A stretch of 20,000 bases of DNA. Origin: an uncultured virus (IMG/VR IMGVR_UViG_3300027785_000021) (taxonomy: Duplodnaviria > Heunggongvirae > Uroviricota > Caudoviricetes). Both the position numbers and the translations under genes were made by a program. Each line of letters begins with the position of its first letter. The first letter of the stretch is position 1. Below the pieces are notes generated by a model. That model saw only the letters and a list, made by a program, of their open reading frames with translations. It made no database searches and was not told the origin of the DNA. The stretch is from positions 58,615 through 78,614 of the IMG/VR virus record IMGVR_UViG_3300027785_000021. One strand, given 5' to 3'. Positions 1-20,000 of this stretch are shown in pieces.

Positions 1-153
1 GTCAGTTTTAGCAAACACACTTTTATCAATAGAAACTCTGTTCTTATTGATTAGCGTGCTCAACTCCTGACGTAAGTTGTTGGAAGCGTTAGATGCATCA
101 GACTTTGGTACAAGCTTAGCACTACCTCTAGTGGCATTGTTTGAATTCTGCAT
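1..153 (-). CDS. Hypothetical phage protein, partial (runs off the left edge)
   Basis: ATG at 153 after an AT-rich leader; open for 51 codons to the edge (MQNSNNATRGSAKLVPKSDASNASNNLRQELSTLINKNRVSIDKSVFAKTD); same strand as neighbours. Confidence 0.6.
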   Translation of the reverse strand, partial: MQNSNNATRGSAKLVPKSDASNASNNLRQELSTLINKNRVSIDKSVFAKTD

Positions 154-182
154 ATGTTATAATTAAAAAAATGAATACTAAT

Positions 183-437
183 TTATAGATTGTCTAGCGT
201 AATCAAGCTGTCAAGTTCAGAATATTTACCTGAATACACATTTTTGCTATCAACACCTTCTACCCAGATACTATCTTCTGATACTTCCAGGTAGTATTCA
301 ATATCAATATTGCCACCAATTTTTACATCTTCAAATCTTTTAGCAGGATCAGCATTGTATACAGCTCCTATAAATAGTCCTGTTCCAAATGCTAATACTA
401 CTGATGCAATTGCCCACTTTAAATTTTCTCTTTTCAT
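183..437 (-). CDS. Small membrane-anchored hypothetical protein (84 aa)
   Basis: Basic N-terminus followed by a hydrophobic segment (WAIASVVLAFGTGLFIGAVY); A-rich leader. Confidence 0.75.
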   Translation of the reverse strand: MKRENLKWAIASVVLAFGTGLFIGAVYNADPAKRFEDVKIGGNIDIEYYLEVSEDSIWVEGVDSKNVYSGKYSELDSLITLDNL

Positions 438-468
438 TTGTTTTATTATTGGTTATTAAATTTCTGAT

Positions 469-502
469 AAAAAAAAAGGAGGAATGTATTACACACTCCT
501 CC
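469..502 (-). terminator. Rho-independent terminator
   Basis: Minus strand GGAGGAGUGU-GUAAU-ACAUUCCUCC followed by U9, just downstream of the 525..815 gene. Confidence 0.85.
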
Positions 503-524
503 TCCTTGCTTTAACTTCCCACGG

Positions 525-815
525 TTATTGCATTATTTCTCTAAGAGGTAACTCACTGACTTCTTTCATCACTTTGGTCACGTCTCCTGGTGTCAAATAA
601 CCTATAACATCACAAGTAATAGGTGTATCATACACAAGGGTAGACTCTTTGTCTTTAGGTCCCATGTGTATTACTGCAAGTTCATACAAACCTTCCTTAC
701 CACCCTTAGTGTATTCTCCACGTATAACAGACACACCATAGTGGTTGTCAAAAAGATGATGAGAATATTCACCCATCCACTCATTGTTTTCAAATTTCAA
801 GTCTTCAAATGTCAT
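525..815 (-). CDS. Conserved phage hypothetical protein (96 aa)
   Basis: Pattern F.N.YG.SV...Y..GG..GLYELAV...YDTPIT.DV.G.L resembles a small uncharacterised protein common in phages (recognised from memory). Confidence 0.8.
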   Translation of the reverse strand: MTFEDLKFENNEWMGEYSHHLFDNHYGVSVIRGEYTKGGKEGLYELAVIHMGPKDKESTLVYDTPITCDVIGYLTPGDVTKVMKEVSELPLREIMQ

Positions 816-844
816 ATTTTTGATTTATAAGTTACTATTTTGTA

Positions 845-946
845 GATCCCCTCTGTACTCAGTTGTAACCTATAGGTAGTATGTGTTATATACATACATC
901 TAATTTCGATTACAACTGCCTGACCTTGGGAATCAGGAATGGTACA
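845..946 (-). ncRNA. Candidate structured RNA: three-way junction with pseudoknot
   Basis: Stems 854-858/942-946, 860-868/910-918 (9 bp perfect), 919-923/933-937, 879-884/892-897. Loop UUCCC can pair with the 3' GGGGA; that pairing has G-U on the minus strand but a C-A mismatch on plus. Confidence 0.5.
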
Positions 947-948
947 TT

Positions 949-980
949 AAAAATAGACTACCCTACTAGAGAGTAGTCTA
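949..980 (-). terminator. Rho-independent terminator
   Basis: Minus strand UAGACUACUCU-CUAGU-AGGGUAGUCUA followed by U5. Confidence 0.75.
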
Positions 981-1169
981 TAACACAGTTTGTTATGAGC
1001 ACTGTATAAGCTGTTAGCTTTTTGAGCTGTTATCCATAGCTTGGAGAAAACATCAGTTAGTTCACTATTACCACCACAGTAATATCACCTAACCTAGTTT
1101 TTTTCTTTGTTTGACTGTTGGTTAGACAGCTTAAGGGAATAAAAGAAGCTATATTAAAATCCCTTTTCG

Positions 1170-1290
1170 TACTCTCACAAGGTTGCAACCCTTGACTTAA
1201 TTTTCCATACCACTGATGGTGTGCAAGTTACTGCCAATATAAATTGTATTCTTTATACACCTCTTCAGGTGTCCTGCTTGGATGAGAGTA
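1170..1290. ncRNA. Candidate structured RNA with tRNA-like acceptor/T-arm geometry
   Basis: 8-bp closing stem 1170-1177/1283-1290 directly abutting a 5-bp stem with 7-nt loop (1178-1194); further hairpins at 1206-1223 and 1257-1272. Confidence 0.4.
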
Positions 1291-1431
1291 ATAGGTTGTT
1301 TCAGTAGTTCCACAAGGGAACTTAACGCATACGCCATGAGTATCTAAACTCTGAGGGCAACAACAATGTATACTTAAATCAGGACTCTTACCTGCAAATC
1401 CCTACATAGTCAATAGGAATGGCTTTCTCAT

Positions 1432-1453
1432 AAAAAACTGACTTGCAAATCAG
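1432..1453 (-). terminator. Rho-independent terminator
   Basis: Minus strand CUGAUU-UGCA-AGUCAG followed by U6, downstream of 1482..1703. Confidence 0.6.
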
Positions 1454-1481
1454 AATAATATGATAAGAAAAAAGGGAGAAC

Positions 1482-1703
1482 TTAATCTCCCATATCAACA
1501 GAGTACGCAATCCTTTTAACAGGATCAACATATAGACAGGATGAACCTGACCTATTACTAAATGCTTTCTCATAATTACCCTTAGGAAGAGTAATACCAG
1601 AGTTAAGCCAACCAAGCCAATTAACTCCTTGTGCTAACATATGTTGTTTAGCTTCTTCATAGGAGTAATACTTATCAATGGTAACTAATAGAATGTTTGT
1701 CAT
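1482..1703 (-). CDS. Hypothetical phage protein (73 aa)
   Basis: ATG start, protein-like composition, followed by a terminator. Confidence 0.7.
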   Translation of the reverse strand: MTNILLVTIDKYYSYEEAKQHMLAQGVNWLGWLNSGITLPKGNYEKAFSNRSGSSCLYVDPVKRIAYSVDMGD

Positions 1704-1773
1704 AGACGTGGGTTTTAATGTGGTTAATAGCTATATAGTACGTAAATTCATTGTGTTATTGTGGCAAAAAACT

Positions 1774-1820
1774 AAAAGCAAAGAAAGGTATAGTGAGGGA
1801 CTGATCCCCCACTCTTACCT
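1774..1820 (-). terminator. Rho-independent terminator
   Basis: Minus strand AGUGGGGGA-UCAG-UCCCUCACU (extendable by AGGUA/UACCU) followed by a U-rich tract, downstream of 1844..2341. Confidence 0.7.
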
Positions 1821-1843
1821 CCTCTAAATCAGGTAGTTACTTG

Positions 1844-2341
1844 TTATTCACCACCTGGCAACATGCCTTTACCACTCTCAAGTGCTTTAGACGCGCTAAC
1901 CTCTGCTTGATTATCGTGAGAAACATTCACATCATGCAATTGATCAGCAGTATCCCACTTAACAAAGCGTAAAATACGTTCTCCATTGCTTGTCAACGCA
2001 GGACCATCAGCACCAGCACGCTTGATATAACTATCAATAGCCTCCTCATAGCTTACGTCATCACGCAGAAACTCCTTAGCTACATCAGCAGGTACTTGAG
2101 ATTCTAGGAACTCAAGGGCTACCAATTTACCAGCTACTTGCAAACCTTTACAAGAGCTTACGAACTGCTCAAGCGTAGCAGTCTTACCGCGTAATAAGCA
2201 CGTGCGCTTAACTTCGCGAATCCATCCAGCGGTCATTACAATAGCACTTTGCTCTAATTGCACATAACCAAAATCAGCGTTTGAATCATACGCTGTCACT
2301 ACAGATCCCTTCTTTCCAGGGACAATTCTTACATTACTCAT
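1844..2341 (-). CDS. Hypothetical protein (165 aa), paralogue of 3445..3936
   Basis: Shared blocks GWIR..KRTCL.RG, PADVAK..LRDDV, KRAG.DG, RI.RF, SHDN.AEV.ASKA. Confidence 0.9.
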   Translation of the reverse strand: MSNVRIVPGKKGSVVTAYDSNADFGYVQLEQSAIVMTAGWIREVKRTCLLRGKTATLEQFVSSCKGLQVAGKLVALEFLESQVPADVAKEFLRDDVSYEEAIDSYIKRAGADGPALTSNGERILRFVKWDTADQLHDVNVSHDNQAEVSASKALESGKGMLPGGE

Positions 2342-2373
2342 ACATCAAGAGTTTAAATTTATACTGAGTTCAA

Positions 2374-2389
2374 TGGGGGTTGCTGTATT
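2374..2389 (-). promoter_or_regulatory. Repeated upstream box TGGGGGTTGCTGTATT (minus: AATACAGCAACCCCCA), copy 1
   Basis: Exact 16-bp match to 4027-4042; lies 33 bp upstream of the 2341 start. Confidence 0.55.
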
Positions 2390-2604
2390 GGACAGATCAA
2401 CGTGTTGTACACCATTCCCCATGGGTTGTTTATTACCTTTCATCACCCTGGGGAAAAAACTGCATGCGTATCGTATGTCAACCTACATTCCACCATTCAT
2501 CTCCACCAAGAGGACAAAAAACTGCACAACTTGACGCAACGTGTGACAGAGTGTACTCCATCATCTATGCATCGTGTGTGCAGTTTGTCCCCAATGGGTG
2601 GTTA

Positions 2605-2844
2605 TTAGTAGCTCATGGGTTCCCCCATCTGGTTCTCCATTGAAGCTACATCAGCATCAATAGCTTTTTGCAAATGATGGCTTAATAATTCAAGAGCAAC
2701 TGTTGCACCTGCTAGTCTTTCAAAGCTTAGTTTTTTACTAAGTACTGAATAGCCACTAGCATCAATAGCTTTCTTGTCTTTATTAAGTTGATCAATTCTT
2801 GCATCAATCATAGCTACAACATCAATCAAAGTTCCTTTGTCCAT
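2605..2844 (-). CDS. Hypothetical helical protein (79 aa)
   Basis: More likely start MDKGTLID at 2844 (A-rich leader) than the 2907 start in the track; amphipathic helical sequence. Confidence 0.7.
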   Translation of the reverse strand: MDKGTLIDVVAMIDARIDQLNKDKKAIDASGYSVLSKKLSFERLAGATVALELLSHHLQKAIDADVASMENQMGEPMSY

Positions 2845-3045
2845 AATACATAGTTTTAAAATACAGGGTGAGATACAGCACCCTGTTAACTGTTTATTTT
2901 GAGCCAAGCATTGGCATTAGCATACACGCCCAGAAGACGCACATGAATCCAACTGCTTGAAGCATGTGAGAGCCAAAGCTCATCAGCAAGCCACTAAATA
3001 CCCCTAGACATAACACTGCCCAGAGGTATAAGATTACTGTCTTTG

Positions 3046-3378
3046 TCATACCTTGCCATAGTTTTTAAGGGTGACAGAAACAGACTCAGATAGTTCAGAG
3101 TCATGTACCTCAGTGAACTTGCTTCTACATAGTAGAACAAACTCACGTGGATGACTCTTGTGTTTTGGATTAGTAACCCAGCACACATTCAGATTCAGGT
3201 GTAGACCTGATACTGTGGAGGCAAGAGGAATGACAACATAGCGTCCATTCTTCATATTGCCAATAGCGTATCTAACGCCATCTGACTCCTCATGCAGAAA
3301 CATATTTTGTATCTGCTTATCTTTCATGAACTCTGCAAGAGGTTGTGAGTCCATGAATGTAAAATTGTACTTACACAT
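3046..3378 (-). CDS. Hypothetical protein (110 aa)
   Basis: ATG preceded by an A-rich leader (TTTAAAACAAATTACT); co-oriented with neighbours. Confidence 0.65.
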   Translation of the reverse strand: MCKYNFTFMDSQPLAEFMKDKQIQNMFLHEESDGVRYAIGNMKNGRYVVIPLASTVSGLHLNLNVCWVTNPKHKSHPREFVLLCRSKFTEVHDSELSESVSVTLKNYGKV

Positions 3379-3397
3379 AGTAATTTGTTTTAAAGAT

Positions 3398-3434
3398 TAA
3401 TAAAAGAGAAGCACGCCTATTTGACGTGCCTCTC
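3398..3434 (-). terminator. Rho-independent terminator
   Basis: Minus strand GAGAGGCACGUC-AAAUA-GGCGUGCUUCUC followed by UUUUAUU, immediately after the 3445 stop. Confidence 0.8.
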
Positions 3435-3444
3435 ATAGGACTGT

Positions 3445-3936
3445 TTAGAATGGTGCGTCCTCTTTCTTAACACCACCTGCTTTGGAAGCAGTCACCTCAG
3501 CGACATTGTCATGAGAGATGGTCATGTCAGTAATGATAGCAGCGCCATCATACTCACAGAATCTCACAATGCGTTTGCCACCTCTAGTGAGTAGCACGCC
3601 ATCCTGACCTGCGCGTTTAACATATGGCTCAATAGCCTCGTCAAACGTCACGTCATCACGCAAGTTGGCTTTAGCCACATCTGCAGGAATTTCATCCTCC
3701 AAATACTCGCGCACTGCAATGCGTCCTGGAAGAGACTTGGTTGCAGCGACCAATTTCTCCAAACGCTCAACTGTACCTCTCATGAGGCAGGTGCGTTTAG
3801 AATCACGTATCCAACCGCCATCAAAGACAGTAGCTACGGTTTCCAGAACAATGTATCCATACTCCTTGTTAGTAGCATAGACGTTAACTAATACTCCCTT
3901 AGTATTAGCTTTGATAGTTACAGCGTTTGTTGCCAT
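3445..3936 (-). CDS. Hypothetical protein (163 aa), paralogue of 1844..2341; SSB-like acidic-PF tail
   Basis: Start reassigned to MATNAV at 3936 by alignment with the paralogue; C-terminus KKEDAPF. Confidence 0.9.
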   Translation of the reverse strand: MATNAVTIKANTKGVLVNVYATNKEYGYIVLETVATVFDGGWIRDSKRTCLMRGTVERLEKLVAATKSLPGRIAVREYLEDEIPADVAKANLRDDVTFDEAIEPYVKRAGQDGVLLTRGGKRIVRFCEYDGAAIITDMTISHDNVAEVTASKAGGVKKEDAPF

Positions 3937-3948
3937 AATCGTGGGAAT

Positions 3949-4018
3949 GGTTGACCTGCACCAAAAGGTTAAATTAAAATTGTGTACTATAATTCTAAAG
4001 GCCATAGTACGTATGCCT
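3949..4018 (-). repeat. Leader repeat copy A with covarying hairpin
   Basis: Imperfect ~70-bp direct repeat of 4314-4387; stem 3984-3990/4004-4010, loop AATTCTAAAGGCC. Confidence 0.8.
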
Positions 4019-4026
4019 GAATATCT

Positions 4027-4042
4027 TGGGGGTTGCTGTATT
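4027..4042 (-). promoter_or_regulatory. Repeated upstream box TGGGGGTTGCTGTATT, copy 2
   Basis: Exact match to 2374-2389; 4021-4042 also matches 4621-4642 at 19/22. Confidence 0.55.
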
Positions 4043-4044
4043 TG

Positions 4045-4302
4045 TTAGATAACTTGTATCCACTCTACATCACCATGCTTGTCATACTGCAATTCAGCAT
4101 TGCGCAGGTAGTGAAACTCCTTGCCATCAATTCTGCTCTTGAATGTTGGAGTAGAACTGATGAGTCTTTCAAGGATGTCTATTGAACCTTTGATCTGCAT
4201 CGTAAGTGAGTTACTTAAGTCATGTAACTCTAGAATGCCATAGGCCTTATCATCAGTGATGTGATCAAGGACTACTGTTGGGTTTGTGATTATAACTCGC
4301 AT
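4045..4302 (-). CDS. Hypothetical protein (85 aa)
   Basis: Start MRVIITNP at 4302 sits at essentially the same distance from the leader repeat as the 3936 start. Confidence 0.7.
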   Translation of the reverse strand: MRVIITNPTVVLDHITDDKAYGILELHDLSNSLTMQIKGSIDILERLISSTPTFKSRIDGKEFHYLRNAELQYDKHGDVEWIQVI

Positions 4303-4313
4303 AACATAGGTGT

Positions 4314-4387
4314 GGTTGACCTGAAGTACCACAAGGTTCTAAATTAAAATGTGCATTGTAATTCTAATGGCCACAATGCTAATGCCT
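4314..4387 (-). repeat. Leader repeat copy B with covarying hairpin
   Basis: Stem 4353-4359/4373-4379, loop AATTCTAATGGCC. Confidence 0.8.
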
Positions 4388-4620
4388 ATCATGAGTAATC
4401 ATGTACGTAAGAGAGTAGGACAACAGTTAATAGAGTATCACAGAGAGATGATTAGTCTCCCTGTGGCTCGTCCTGCGCAGGCACTTGGCATCCCACCAAG
4501 TCTTTGAAATCACATGCAGTTGTTTCTGTAGTAAGCGTATGCTTCTGACAGAGACAATGCAATGATTTGTACTCCTGCAATGTAGTATGTTTTGTACATT
4601 GTATAGGTTTTTTGTCCTGG

Positions 4621-4666
4621 ATATCATGGGGGGTGCTGTGTTCTGGCGTGGACTGGGGGAGCTGTA
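4621..4666 (-). promoter_or_regulatory. Degenerate copies 3 and 4 of the G5-GCTGT box
   Basis: ATATCATGGGGGGTGCTGTGTT (4621-4642) and TGGGGGAGCTGTA (4654-4666). Confidence 0.4.
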
Positions 4667-4776
4667 GCATAGACAGTACCCATAATCTCTTCCTCAGAGA
4701 AATTTCAGTACTTGAAAAATTTTTATATAGAAATTTTTTTTTGTAACTTATAGTGTAAACATAAACACATTGCGCA

Positions 4777-5682
4777 ATGAAAACACAAAAAATTAACTTA
4801 ATTAATGTAGACTTCTCTGGGTTTTCTGCTACTGAAGCAGATCGTAGAGATGGTGCAGTTGGCCACGTAAACTATGCGTTGTCACAAATTGATTTAGCTA
4901 CTGGTATTGACACAGATTATAATGCTCGTGGTAGAGTATTATTTAACATCTTAGGACAAGCTTCTAATAACGATGGTATTAATAGTGGTAGTTCTCTTGT
5001 TATTGGTCAGAAGTATATTATTGACTATTTAGAAGAAGGTGATGATTTTACTAATGTAGGTGCTGCTGAGAATGCTGTTGGGGTAGTGTTCACTGCTACT
5101 GGTGAAACTCCTGACGTTTGGAATGGAAGCGTTTTACATGAAAACTTATCCAAAGATATTAGTGATATTGTTAGGAAGTATAGTGATGCAGAATTTTACA
5201 AATGGGTATTTCTTGCAGATAGTGCACTTGCAAGTTTTAATAAAGGATTTGAATATATTGGTGGACCATCTGTGCTTACAGGTGATGACATGTTTGATTA
5301 TATTTCTGTTGATCCTGAGCTTGTTACTGAAAATGTAGAATATTACTATGGAAATATAACTCTACTTAACATGGATACTAGAATTTATGATTCTACATTT
5401 CCAGTACTTAATTTTAGTACGTATACAGATCTTGAGATGGATCAATCATTTCTTGTATTAGAAGGTGTTGATTTTAGAAATTACACAGTATGGTCATCTC
5501 CATTGGCAGGGGTTTATCGTAGCCTTGATGCAGGTTCAGCATACTTGTCAGAATTTGTTAATTCAGAAGATGGTAAAATTTACATTCCTGTAGTTGATAC
5601 AAAGATAGGATTGAGATTTGACTTTGAGATTCGCTTGTATGACTATGTGGCGCCAGTTCCTGTAGTTGATGTTGATAGGTAA
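4777..5682 (+). CDS. Putative virion structural/fibre-type protein (301 aa, acidic)
   Basis: Long ORF containing G.KY.I...GDDFTNVGA..N.VG..F.ATG, a motif type seen in phage virion fibre proteins (from memory). Confidence 0.55.
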   Translation: MKTQKINLINVDFSGFSATEADRRDGAVGHVNYALSQIDLATGIDTDYNARGRVLFNILGQASNNDGINSGSSLVIGQKYIIDYLEEGDDFTNVGAAENAVGVVFTATGETPDVWNGSVLHENLSKDISDIVRKYSDAEFYKWVFLADSALASFNKGFEYIGGPSVLTGDDMFDYISVDPELVTENVEYYYGNITLLNMDTRIYDSTFPVLNFSTYTDLEMDQSFLVLEGVDFRNYTVWSSPLAGVYRSLDAGSAYLSEFVNSEDGKIYIPVVDTKIGLRFDFEIRLYDYVAPVPVVDVDR

Positions 5683-5699
5683 TTTACTCTAGAAAGAGG

Positions 5700-5734
5700 A
5701 AAGGGGGTAGTTGCTGATGCTACCCCTTTTTTTT
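5700..5734 (+). terminator. Rho-independent terminator between convergent genes (possibly bidirectional)
   Basis: GGGGUAGU-UGCUGAU-GCUACCCC followed by U8; purine/A-rich on the 5' side. Confidence 0.85.
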
Positions 5735-6227
5735 ATGACCAGTGGTTATTAGGTTTTTCCCAATAGAATTCTAGTTCGCGATCTGAGTGTTTGTAGTATC
5801 TTCCTACTACATCTGATTTATAGATACTATCTATGTTTTCAAACAATGCCGCTGTGTAGTAATCTATACCAGCCACTTCTAAGCATTCTGTGATCCATGT
5901 ATAGTTCTTACCAGTAATCACACCTGCTTCTATGAGGATTACGTTTTTGTATTTTTGAAATTTACGAATACCCATAGAGCTTGTTTGATCTAGCATTTGC
6001 TTTATGTAAATGTTTTTGTCCTCATCTGGGTATGGTACGTCAATGAAGGTTATATCTAGCATTTCACCATCTTTACTCAAATGATGTGCTGCATGCATTC
6101 CTACTGTTGCGCTGTAATCTGGACTTACTATGACTACAAGTGTATTACTTGGGTGGGTGTCAAGTTTTTCTAAACCTCTACAAAAAGATTTGAGTACTGT
6201 CCATTCTAAATCACGTGATACATACAT
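5733..6227 (-). CDS. Phosphoribosyltransferase (type I PRTase)-like protein
   Basis: KNVILIEAGVITGKNY resembles the PRPP-binding loop (hhhhDDhhxTGxT); alpha/beta pattern; ends EFYWE like the F/YPWE ending of purine PRTases. Confidence 0.55.
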   Translation of the reverse strand: MYVSRDLEWTVLKSFCRGLEKLDTHPSNTLVVIVSPDYSATVGMHAAHHLSKDGEMLDITFIDVPYPDEDKNIYIKQMLDQTSSMGIRKFQKYKNVILIEAGVITGKNYTWITECLEVAGIDYYTAALFENIDSIYKSDVVGRYYKHSDRELEFYWEKPNNHWS

Positions 6228-18291: not shown

Positions 18292-18317
18292 TAAAAAATA
18301 AATAAGATGAGTACAAT
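18292..18317 (+). repeat. 26-bp gene-junction repeat, copy 1 of 3 (also 19148-19173 and 19932-19957)
   Basis: TAAAAAATAAATAA(G/A)ATGAGTACA(A/C)T spanning each fibre start codon. Confidence 0.75.
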
Positions 18318-19161
18318 AAACGTAGACATAGTTTCTCCTCAGTCTGTTGCAAACGTAACAGTAAGTAGTGGGTTAAATGTAACAGGTGATATAATGAGTT
18401 CACCAGGAGGTTTACCTTCAGTAGGAGGAATAAAAGTTGGAGGAGCTAGCAATGGAATAATTCAGATTTCTAATTACAATGTATTAGGTTCTCTGGGTGG
18501 TGGTACAGTAGCTATCGGTAATACTGGACAACCAACAGGAGCTGATAACATTTTGATAGGAAGGCTTCCAGGTCAACAATTAACAACAGGTACATTAAAT
18601 GTTTGTGTTGGAGCTTTAGCTGGCAATCAACTTAGTACTGGTGGGGGAAATGTTTTTATTGGTACTAATTCTGGAGCTACTAATTCAACAGGTCAAAATA
18701 ATACATACATTGGATCTAATGCTAATCAATATTTAGATACTACTGGAAGTAACAATATATGTATAGGTGCTGCATCTGCTATACCAGCATTAAATTCAGC
18801 TAACTCTATTACATTAGGTAATGCAGCTAATAATGTATTACGTTGTGCTGTAACAAGCATTACATCCTTGTCTGATTCTAGAGATAAGAAAAATATTGAA
18901 GAATCTACTTATGGCCTTGATTTAATTGAGTCTCTTAAACCTGTTACATTTGAATGGGACACTAGAGATGGTGCTAAGAAAGATATTAAAGACTTAGGTT
19001 TTATAGCACAAGATTTAAAAGAATTAGATGATGATTATTTAGGATTAGTGTATGATGAAAATCCTGAGAAATTAGAGGCATCTTATGGTAAATTGATTCC
19101 TGTCTTAGTTAAAGCTATTCAAGAGTTATCAGCAGAAGTTAAAGAATTAAAAAATAAATAA
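18307..19161 (+). CDS. Short fibre protein with C-terminal intramolecular chaperone (peptidase S74) domain
   Basis: N-x-x-I-G repeats at ~14-residue spacing; SDSRDKKNI cleavage motif, LKPVTFEW, GFIAQD, YGKLIPVLVKAIQEL coiled coil. Confidence 0.88.
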   Translation: MSTINVDIVSPQSVANVTVSSGLNVTGDIMSSPGGLPSVGGIKVGGASNGIIQISNYNVLGSLGGGTVAIGNTGQPTGADNILIGRLPGQQLTTGTLNVCVGALAGNQLSTGGGNVFIGTNSGATNSTGQNNTYIGSNANQYLDTTGSNNICIGAASAIPALNSANSITLGNAANNVLRCAVTSITSLSDSRDKKNIEESTYGLDLIESLKPVTFEWDTRDGAKKDIKDLGFIAQDLKELDDDYLGLVYDENPEKLEASYGKLIPVLVKAIQELSAEVKELKNK

Positions 19162-19162
19162 A

Positions 19163-19945
19163 ATGAGTACAATTTATGTAGATCAGGTTTTGAATGGAGT
19201 TTCATCACCAACAAATACAATTTTTCCTGTTAATATCAATGGAGCAAATGTAAAAGTAATACCTAATAATTTAGGTGATAATGTTAGTATAGGTATTGGT
19301 AATGGAGCTTTAGCTGCCTCTACATTAAATACTGAATTAAATAATACAGCTTTTGGATTTAGGGCTTTATTAAATTGTAGCGGAGATGATAACACAGCTG
19401 TTGGTAATGCGGCATTACAGACAATTACTGGATTTGGATCTGGTAATAATACTGCTATAGGACAAAATGCAGGATATGGAATGACAGGATCTCAAAACTG
19501 CATTTTTATTGGTCGAGGAAGCACAGGCTCTACACCTACAGCTATTAATGAAATAACATTAGGAAATTCTGCAAATACAGTTATTAGAGCTGCTGTAACC
19601 ACTATTACATCATTGTCAGATGCTAGAGACAAAAAAGATGTTAAGGATTTAAGTACAGGTTTAGAGTTTGTAGAAGCCCTTAGACCAGTTGAGTTCACAT
19701 GGAACGATAGAGATGAAAATGGTAGACATGATATAGCTGATTTTGGATTCATAGCACAAGATTTAAAGAAAGCACAAGAAGATGCTGAAAAAGCAGAAGT
19801 TCTTAAACTTGTCTACGAAGAGAATCCAGAGAAACTTGAAGCTAGTTATGGTAGATTAATACCTGTATTAGTAAAAGCAATTCAAGAAATGAATACAGAG
19901 ATCAAATCTCTAAAAGAAGAAATATTAACGCTAAAAAATAAATAA
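19163..19945 (+). CDS. Short fibre protein with S74 chaperone domain, paralogue of 18307..19161
   Basis: NTAFG/NTAVG/NTAIG repeats; SDARDKKDV, LRPVEFTW, GFIAQD, NPEKLEASYG.LIPVLVKAIQE. Confidence 0.88.
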   Translation: MSTIYVDQVLNGVSSPTNTIFPVNINGANVKVIPNNLGDNVSIGIGNGALAASTLNTELNNTAFGFRALLNCSGDDNTAVGNAALQTITGFGSGNNTAIGQNAGYGMTGSQNCIFIGRGSTGSTPTAINEITLGNSANTVIRAAVTTITSLSDARDKKDVKDLSTGLEFVEALRPVEFTWNDRDENGRHDIADFGFIAQDLKKAQEDAEKAEVLKLVYEENPEKLEASYGRLIPVLVKAIQEMNTEIKSLKEEILTLKNK

Positions 19946-19946
19946 A

Positions 19947-20000
19947 ATGAGTACACTTAATGTAGATAACGTATTGCCTCAAGGGACAAATATAGTTAAT
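19947..20000 (+). CDS. Third fibre-family gene, partial (runs off the right edge)
   Basis: MSTLNVDNVLPQGTNIVN shares the MST(I/L).VD.V N-terminus and the junction repeat. Confidence 0.75.
   Translation, partial: MSTLNVDNVLPQGTNIVN

Follow-up and report, generated by a model that had tools for sequence, protein, structure and literature searches.

CrAss-like phages rank among the most abundant of all known phages. Here we analyzed a duplicated hairpin, termed HP1, at the head of the presumed early gene block of one such phage, which is represented by a 20,000-nucleotide (nt) stretch (hereafter the window, with position 1 as its first letter) forming the last 20 kb of the 78,614-base-pair (bp) IMG/VR record IMGVR_UViG_3300027785_000021. 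Judged from the Crass_capsid match, the terminase and the portal found in the window, the virus is a crAss-like phage, and a 123-kb record (G001) is 100% identical to it over window positions 1-6000. In window 1-4700 the genes are encoded on the minus strand, which also carries all features described below unless stated otherwise, and a co-oriented block runs leftward for ~39 kb from a divergent region at ~4700. As this block carries a DNA polymerase, a primase, a DnaB-like helicase, a ribonucleotide reductase and a dUTPase, it is regarded as the replicative module. In phage phi14:2, the replicative module constitutes the early class and is transcribed by gp66, an injected virion RNA polymerase (RNAP), which transcribes only denatured DNA in vitro and for which no common early motif was found (10.1101/2020.03.07.982082). 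The virion RNAPs of crAss phages are of the DFDxD two-barrel type according to the same preprint (10.1101/2020.03.07.982082). Two large open reading frames (ORFs) of 4019 and 2028 amino acids (aa) are found upstream in the record.

Two genes near the divergent region, gene A (3445..3936; 163 aa, no named family) and gene B (4045..4302; 85 aa), are each preceded by an intergenic leader that contains a 27-nt HP1 hairpin; HP1 thus precedes ORFs two and three of the presumed early block. Copy A (3984..4010), located 47 nt 5′ of the gene A ATG (3936), folds into a 7-bp stem, GTACTAT/ATAGTAC, with the loop GGCCTTTAGAATT; copy B (4353..4379), located 50 nt 5′ of the gene B ATG (4302), has the stem GCATTGT/ACAATGC and the loop GGCCATTAGAATT. 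The consensus of the 13-nt loop is GGCC(T/A)TTAGAATT. Comparison of the arms of the two copies found differences at positions 2, 4 and 6, each of which is matched on the opposite arm (T-A to C-G, C-G to T-A and A-T to G-C); by a simple estimate, three random substitutions per arm would hit the same pairs and be complementary in about 1 in 945 cases. Flanking sequences are also shared by both leaders, namely CAGGTCAACC (3949-3958 and 4314-4323), ATTTTAATTT (3971-3980 and 4341-4350) and AGGCAT (4013-4018 and 4382-4387), and a repeat finder listed the leader pair as repeat D10, with a length of 47 nt, 74% identity and a spacing of 369 nt. A first-pass annotation, made from the letters of the window without database searches, had described a duplicated leader hairpin with three compensated stem changes and with its loop and flanks retained; the hairpin is present as described when the minus strand is read, and the loop and flanks were found in both leaders.

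The HP1 stem is A+T-rich, with two to four G-C pairs out of seven. As RNA, copy A forms nine pairs, two of them G·U pairs at the loop base, and the calculated fold energies of copies A and B are −5.4 and −7.0 kcal/mol as RNA, and −2.0 and −4.3 kcal/mol as single-stranded DNA, respectively.

Covariation, loop conservation and placement of HP1 in relatives

To follow HP1 beyond the window, the gene A protein and loop patterns were used as queries to collect relatives, which yielded dozens of environmental contigs. A scan of loci L119-L196 found 29 distinct contexts of the element, and 15 arm/loop/arm combinations with 13 different stems were obtained from loci L119 to L259. Of the 105 stem cells in these combinations, 101 were Watson-Crick pairs, the others being three G·U and one C·A. 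In alignment A4, which comprises 23 rows (21 distinct), 146 of 147 HP1 stem cells pair and six of the seven pairs have changed on both sides; none of 500 shuffled alignments attained any of the five measures used, and slid controls paired in 9-52% of cells. Further, at least 16 pair changes are required to connect 11 distinct HP1 5′ arms. HP1 is therefore under selection, and the corresponding inference of the first-pass annotation is borne out by this stem covariation. The annotation had also proposed a search for other copies that keep the stem: none was found elsewhere in the record, where the loop occurs just twice even with two mismatches tolerated, and many were found in the relatives, in the form of the 13 different stems.

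While the arms change, the loop and its 5′ flank are nearly constant. The loop varies at only three of its 13 positions, namely position 1 (G, once A), position 5 (T/A) and position 7 (G/T/A), and the AGGC flank (4015..4018 in copy A and 4384-4387 in copy B) is the same in 23/23 aligned instances. The loop stays fixed at the nucleotide level even though the identity of the gene A protein drops to 42-69% among the relatives. In a control search of viral contigs with the loop and the AGGC flank, and with no requirement for a stem, 48 contexts were retrieved; 17 have the stem, and these 17 all come from this phage group, whereas the other 31 pair at fewer than six of the seven positions. Cellular genomes contain at least 120 loop-plus-AGGC matches, and none of the 120 listed has the 7-pair stem.

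Coding was considered as an explanation for the loop conservation. A sense-strand ORF from an ATG/GTG/TTG at the stem-loop junction is open into gene A in the window (3445-4005) and in two of the 21 relatives (L130 and L159); elsewhere the frame through the loop ends early or shifts, and no synonymous variation is seen in the loop. The antisense frame through the loop (I-L-K/M-A) meets a stop within 30 codons upstream in 17 of 20 instances and within 45 codons downstream in 16 of 20. In this antisense frame, two of the three loop positions that vary fall on third codon positions, and several instances have no start between the stop and the loop. As ORFs are conserved on neither strand, coding cannot explain the conservation of the loop.

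Next, the genomic distribution of HP1 was evaluated with a covariance model in five near-complete genomes (~120 kb), which contained 2, 1, 1, 1 and 0 copies, all at the same locus; the genome with no copy is that of a sister lineage (G006, 98% complete). HP1 always lies in gene orientation, 47-51 nt 5′ of the ATG in 16 of 20 instances and at 30, 31, 41 and 76 nt in the others. It heads three unrelated gene families, that is, gene A with its paralogues, gene B, and a 104-aa gene, and the final or sole HP1 copy of each locus directly precedes a member of the gene A family. In all four two-copy lineages the stems of the two copies differ, as expected if two hairpins on one transcript must avoid mispairing. 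Gene B forms a cassette with its own HP1/HP2 leader (HP2 is described below), with homologues in L159, L161, L162 and L166; the gene and its leader are missing in G002 and most relatives, in which the single HP1 directly follows the upstream leader. Comparison of window 4036-4312 with G002 (L121 1501-1591) revealed gene B plus leader as an insertion or deletion between two HP1 leaders, and the two leaders of the window correspond to a single hybrid leader in G002, which is consistent with recombination between leader copies. In G003, which has terminal repeats, HP1 lies near the middle, with the caveat that assembly repeats need not be the true ends.

The element appears to be new. Rfam returned no match at E values up to 1 for window 1-6000 on both strands, a collection of deposited phages gave no match to window 3400-4800, and no description of HP1 was found in literature searches, the supplements of two preprints being outside their scope.

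HP2, the structured upstream leader and the C-run box

A second and smaller hairpin, HP2, separates HP1 from the start codon. Its general form is TGGT-GCTTAGGTCA-ACCA, ending 10-11 nt before the ATG. Copy A (3948..3963) consists of TGGT/ACCA with the loop GCAGGTCA, its 3′ arm ending 11 nt before the gene A ATG, and copy B (4311..4333) of TGTGGT/ACCACA with the loop ACTTCAGGTCA, its 4-bp core (ACCA) ending 10 nt before the ATG. Together, HP1 and HP2 span ~63-69 nt with an A/U-rich single-stranded linker between them. The HP2 stem covaries, as seen from TGTGGT/ACCACA in copy B, GCGGT/ACTGC in L161 and CAGT/ACTG in L192, and G·U pairs occur in L161 and L162. The hairpin is weak, with 76% of the helix cells paired and three of the five pairs changed on both sides. 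HP2 was included in the minimum-energy fold of the B leader and was not predicted in the RNAalifold consensus.

Upstream of HP1-B, the stretch of ~250 nt that extends to the first C-run box (4388-4640) contains several helices covarying in 14 relatives, and an invariant GGACA...TGTCC pairing within it may close the domain. Over the 300 nt 5′ of HP1 in these 14 relatives, pairing is kept in 92.8% of helix cells, compared with 30-47% in slid controls, and compensatory changes are seen in 22 of 55 pairs; outside HP1, the upstream helices contain 58 G·U against 9 A·C cells. Two hairpins in 4439..4500 (helices 6 and 8) have 97% and 91% of their cells paired, each with four pairs changed on both sides. 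One of these, at 4484-4500, is CTTGG-TGGGATG-CCAAG with the fixed loop TGGGATG, and the other, at 4439-4465, is terminator-like and consists of CACAGGGAGA, a loop and TCTCTCTGTG. The first ORF of the block, of 29 codons (4510..4599; MYKTYYIAGVQIIALSLSEAYAYYRNNCM), also lies in this stretch. It is kept at 29-34 codons in the relatives with third-position changes that preserve the peptide, and as it overlaps covarying helices, it may be both coding and structured. The structured stretch recalls the early non-coding RNAs of phi14:2, in which long, apparently non-coding stretches among the first genes of the early block are very highly transcribed from the earliest sample onward (10.1101/2020.03.07.982082). 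The two phages share this genome layout; unlike in the present case, that preprint reports no structure or motif for these stretches, and no sequence similarity to them was found.

The third feature of the locus is a linear sequence termed the C-run box, ACAGCA(A/C)CCCCC-N8-CAG(G/T), which occurs three times in the record, always in minus-strand intergenic sequence and nowhere but near the start of the replicative block. The class 1 box (4616..4639; ACAGCACCCCCCATGATATCCAGG) precedes both the 29-codon ORF and the structured leader; the class 2 box (4016..4039; ACAGCAACCCCCAAGATATTCAGG) lies directly 5′ of HP1-A, and the class 3 box (2363..2386; ACAGCAACCCCCATTGAACTCAGT) 21 nt before the ATG of a gene A paralogue, with no hairpin after it. 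One of the three copies is thus followed by HP1 at 4-7 nt, and the two others lack the hairpin. Counts of CCCCC-N8-CAGK on the sense strand of the five near-complete genomes were 3, 2, 2, 3 and 0, compared with 0-1 for a reversed-pattern control. One genome (G004) has an extra match on the opposite strand, and every match falls within a few kb of the HP1 locus. Looser versions of the box are found in distant relatives, including those of the G006 type. The C-run box is a better candidate for an early promoter than HP1, and if transcription starts at the box, HP1 would be the first structure of the transcript. In one relative (L194, ~60-110; gene A paralogue with 44% identity), a different hairpin, GTCGC-12 nt-GCGAC, occupies the same place after a C-run-like box, and a hairpin directly after the box may therefore be more general than HP1 itself. 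The box is comparable to the strongly conserved linear motif of the pre-early promoters of Thermus phage P23-45, which lies 5′ of starts at the genome head and is used by the virion RNAP gp96 (10.1101/2022.12.01.518664). This motif differs in being AT-rich and in belonging to a different phage family, and it bears on the C-run box, not on HP1; the word ‘hairpin’ is absent from the main text of the preprint (10.1101/2022.12.01.518664).

Other possible roles of the HP1 sequence were examined. A kissing interaction between the HP1 loop (GGCCU) and the HP2 loop (AGGUC) is unsupported, as no compensating change was found and the L135-type and L192 variants weaken the pairing. Complementarity also exists between AGGC and GCCU of the loop; both sides are invariant, so a pseudoknot would leave no covariation signal either way. 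As for a trans-acting complement of the loop, there is no 9-nt one in the record, and the two sense-strand 9-mers in G001 are at the level of the reversed-pattern control. An intrinsic terminator was rejected, given that HP1 was not listed by the terminator scan and has an A+T-rich stem, a 13-nt loop, and ACA before the T-rich stretch.

A candidate RNA leader element and competing readings

We consider it somewhat more probable than the alternatives taken together, at roughly 55%, that HP1 is a cis-acting RNA leader hairpin, the loop of which is bound by a factor controlling expression of the next gene. RNA action, binding of a factor at the loop and a post-transcriptional step are all what we infer from sequence comparison. 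In such a mechanism, HP1 would be part of the 5′ leader that opens the early (replicative) operon and its first genes, and its stem, with seven Watson-Crick pairs and probably two G·U pairs, would merely present the loop. The loop, whose central nine positions vary at two letters, CC(U/A)U(G/U/A)AGAA, would be the surface that a trans-acting factor recognises, and this factor would most likely be a phage or host protein. Binding of the factor would set expression of the cistron immediately 3′ of HP1, and would do so, jointly with the weaker HP2, by affecting either the initiation of translation or what becomes of the mRNA. HP1 is modular and moves with gene cassettes.

Several observations point to RNA. 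RNAalifold, unprompted, added the two G·U pairs at the HP1 loop base, one of which becomes A-U in L192. The consensus fold of the sense strand is more stable than that of the antisense strand in both alignments compared (A3, −8.9 versus −6.7; A6, −32.3 versus −25.2 kcal/mol). As the covarying helices upstream are rich in G·U pairs, the upstream region probably acts as sense RNA, and HP1 lies downstream within the same region. On the sense strand, the non-Watson-Crick cells of HP1 itself are three G·U versus one C·A. Some findings weigh against this reading. The strand asymmetry of HP1 alone rests on those four cells, and the upstream structure was predicted on the same alignment and on the sense strand with G·U allowed, which inflates both its pairing and its G·U figures. 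Single-sequence folds are near the shuffled controls, with z about −1.65. Lying 30-76 nt from the AUG, HP1 is too distant to block a ribosome alone, and HP2 is missing or replaced in four of 20 instances. The gene A protein is mildly acidic, with an isoelectric point of 5.9, and has no recognisable RNA-binding family.

Two interpretations were offered by the first-pass annotation, a protein-binding RNA leader element and a hairpin promoter for a virion RNAP. The former fits the evidence best, given the wobble pairs on the sense strand, the second covarying hairpin close to the ATG, the G·U-rich structure of the upstream leader and the three unrelated families headed by HP1; the latter is weakened, although the setting that it assumed is right. 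A broader version of the polymerase idea can be put forward at low probability, namely that HP1, alone or combined with HP2 and the neighbouring C-run box, serves as a direct signal to the injected crAss-type virion RNAP. This signal could be exposed DNA at initiation, or a nascent RNA that makes the enzyme processive in the manner of the put RNAs of phage HK022. In HK022, putL and putR are long, bulged stems with a triplex, which bind the zinc-binding domain of the host β′ subunit and need no protein (PMC9378689). A general nut- or put-like role, in which HP1 and HP2 in nascent RNA, with or without a phage protein, would modify the transcribing polymerase and so permit read-through of terminators at the head of the early block, or would form a promoter-proximal attenuator relieved by a factor, seems unlikely to us, even though much of the setting would suit it. 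The promoter-like C-run box is found just 5′ of HP1, and both head the ~39-kb co-oriented block; terminator-like sites follow HP1, one of them directly after gene A (3406-3434), and a terminator-like hairpin also lies 5′ of it. With 0-2 HP1 copies per genome, the numbers are also similar to those of put, which according to the HK022 report is likewise ~70 nt long with two stem-loops, is present twice per genome after early promoters, works in cis as nascent RNA, as proposed here for HP1/HP2, and acts over at least 10 kb (PMC9378689). However, put serves two divergent operons, whereas both HP1 copies lie in tandem in one operon before successive genes, each mostly at a fixed 47-51 nt, and an antiterminator needs none of that. 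The stems are short in the present case, 7-9 and 4-6 bp, and HP2 is weak (4 bp), absent from the four instances mentioned above and thus dispensable in some lineages. The put stems are long and bulged and target the host RNAP, so there is no precedent if a virion RNAP reads the block as in phi14:2, and the G006 lineage runs a similar block with no HP1. Improbable, too, is a structural RNA that needs no factor, by which HP1, at a 5′ terminus or between cistrons, would protect the downstream or upstream mRNA from nucleases or would mark the linker for cleavage. Its position 4-7 nt after the CAGG of the box would place HP1 at the 5′ end if transcription starts there, the different hairpin of L194 stands at the same place after the box, and an A/U-rich single-stranded linker follows HP1. 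Protection, however, needs no fixed loop, and 10 of 13 loop positions plus AGGC are constant over the 13 stem variants.

The readings in which HP1 acts as DNA fare no better. That it is an N4-style hairpin promoter for the injected virion RNAP, extruded or single-stranded, with the start in the A+T-rich linker, we also regard as improbable. The early promoters P1-P3 of N4 contain a GC-rich heptamer with inverted repeats and a 3-nt loop, centred at −11, and act on the template strand (PMC4496689). HP1 resembles them in that a few hairpins (three in N4, and in the present case all in gene orientation) precede the early genes in a phage that injects its own RNAP, with a conserved loop and a variable stem whose bases need only pair, as is described for N4 (PMC4496689). 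Moreover, HP1 heads the replicative block that is transcribed by the virion RNAP in phi14:2, gp66 takes denatured DNA only and no common early motif was found for it, and our literature searches found no published early promoter of a crAss phage. On the other hand, the N4 enzyme is T7-like and unrelated to the two-barrel crAss polymerase, and HP1, with its 13-nt loop, A+T-rich stem and −2.0/−4.3 kcal/mol as single-stranded DNA, is not the short, stable, GC-rich hairpin with a 3-nt loop that characterizes N4. Wobble pairs favour the sense strand, on which alone the two G·U pairs at the loop base form: N4 RNAP reads the template strand, which in HP1 would have C·A mismatches wherever the sense strand has G·U, although the events are few. 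HP1 also lies 30-76 nt before the ATG. The more general C-run box is found just 5′ of it, the block opens with the 4616-4639 box, the 29-codon ORF and then the structured leader, all of them ahead of HP1, and G006 has no HP1 yet keeps C-run-like boxes. The sole mapped promoter of a two-barrel virion RNAP, that of P23-45 gp96, is linear (10.1101/2022.12.01.518664). Least probable of all is a duplex-DNA signal, whether as an operator whose inverted repeats surround a −35-like hexamer or as a promoter directed the opposite way. The loop does contain TTGAGA, followed 16-17 nt downstream by TAATTT or TATATT, and the antisense strand reads TTGACC-18 nt-TAAAAT, the scan listing antisense pairs at 3951-3980 and 4316-4345. 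In G002, the linker TATATTTG matches TAnnTTTG, the consensus of the −7 box of Bacteroidota. Yet sigma-70-like matches on either strand are not above those in shuffled sequences (14 versus 15.5 ± 3.8), and the loop varies at the wrong positions, that is, the first and third of the would-be −35 hexamer, which such hexamers keep. A dimeric binder would keep its half-sites, whereas the HP1 arms change freely if paired, even within one genome.

Returning to the RNA leader hairpin with a factor-bound loop, other regulatory RNAs offer partial parallels. The boxB and boxA of phage lambda nut comprise a 5-bp stem with a 5-nt GNRA-like loop and a linear box, are present in two operons, and are bound by a phage protein encoded just downstream. 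The likeness to HP1 lies in a small hairpin with a conserved loop and linear flanks that occurs twice per genome in early leaders. The gene 32 operator of T4 and RB69 is also a structured 5′ leader of an early gene of the replication module, in which the sequence diverges and the structure is kept (PMC535899). The difference is that gp32 binds its own operator (PMC535899), whereas HP1 heads three unrelated families. A gene A family member directly follows the last or only HP1 copy at every locus, and the gene A paralogue in the window lacks HP1.

HP1 is thus a new motif of a familiar kind, and what makes it interesting is that it stands where early expression of crAss phages begins. In this clade, the early block is headed by a compact and very well supported group of cis-elements, comprising HP1, the start-codon-adjacent HP2, the structured leader RNA and the C-rich box. 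Should a factor bind HP1, the hairpin would offer a handle for an immediate-early regulator in phages lacking a cultured host; should none bind, it would still be a clean new RNA motif for family databases. Direct reading of HP1 by the virion RNAP, if it occurs, would make the hairpin the first cis-signal defined for polymerases of this class.

Gene A and other features of the window

Gene A has no Pfam or PHROG match. A search of 5.8 billion proteins returned 263 relatives, all unnamed, and the family seems confined to this phage group. Its structural model, with a mean predicted local distance difference test (pLDDT) score of 86.6, has an N-terminal small β-barrel with weak fold matches (Z ≤4.6), and the resulting likeness to single-stranded-DNA-binding proteins is not evidence for a role; PDB sequence profiles, Foldseek, VIA-align and Atlas, searched for the role of gene A, gave weak small-barrel likeness only. 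The paralogue of gene A in the window (1844-2341; repeat D2) has 47% identity and lies 1.1 kb downstream. The 260-nt intergenic stretch 5′ of this paralogue (2342-2604) contains two CAGTTTTTT(G/C) units and a possible long hairpin, GGACAAACTGCACA ... TGTGCAGTTTTTTGTCC; units like CAGTTTTTT(G/C) are also found 5′ of the gene A paralogue in the distant relatives L186-L193.

Intrinsic-terminator-like hairpins with T-runs were found at several sites in the first 4.7 kb, including that at 3406..3434 directly 3′ of gene A and those at 1474-1491, 953-981 and 473-507. In window 1-5000, five terminator-like sites were counted on the minus strand, compared with 2.5 ± 1.7 in shuffled sequences for both strands together. 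The G+C content is 41-45% in 2000-4500 and 28-38% elsewhere in the window, so that the late genes and the first part of the early block are unlike in composition. Among the latter, three successive genes on the plus strand share the same start region, TAAAAAATAAATAA(G/A)ATGAGTACA, at 18292-18341, 19148-19197 and 19932-19981; one of them has a Peptidase_S74 chaperone domain, and the trio resemble tandem tail-fibre-like paralogues.

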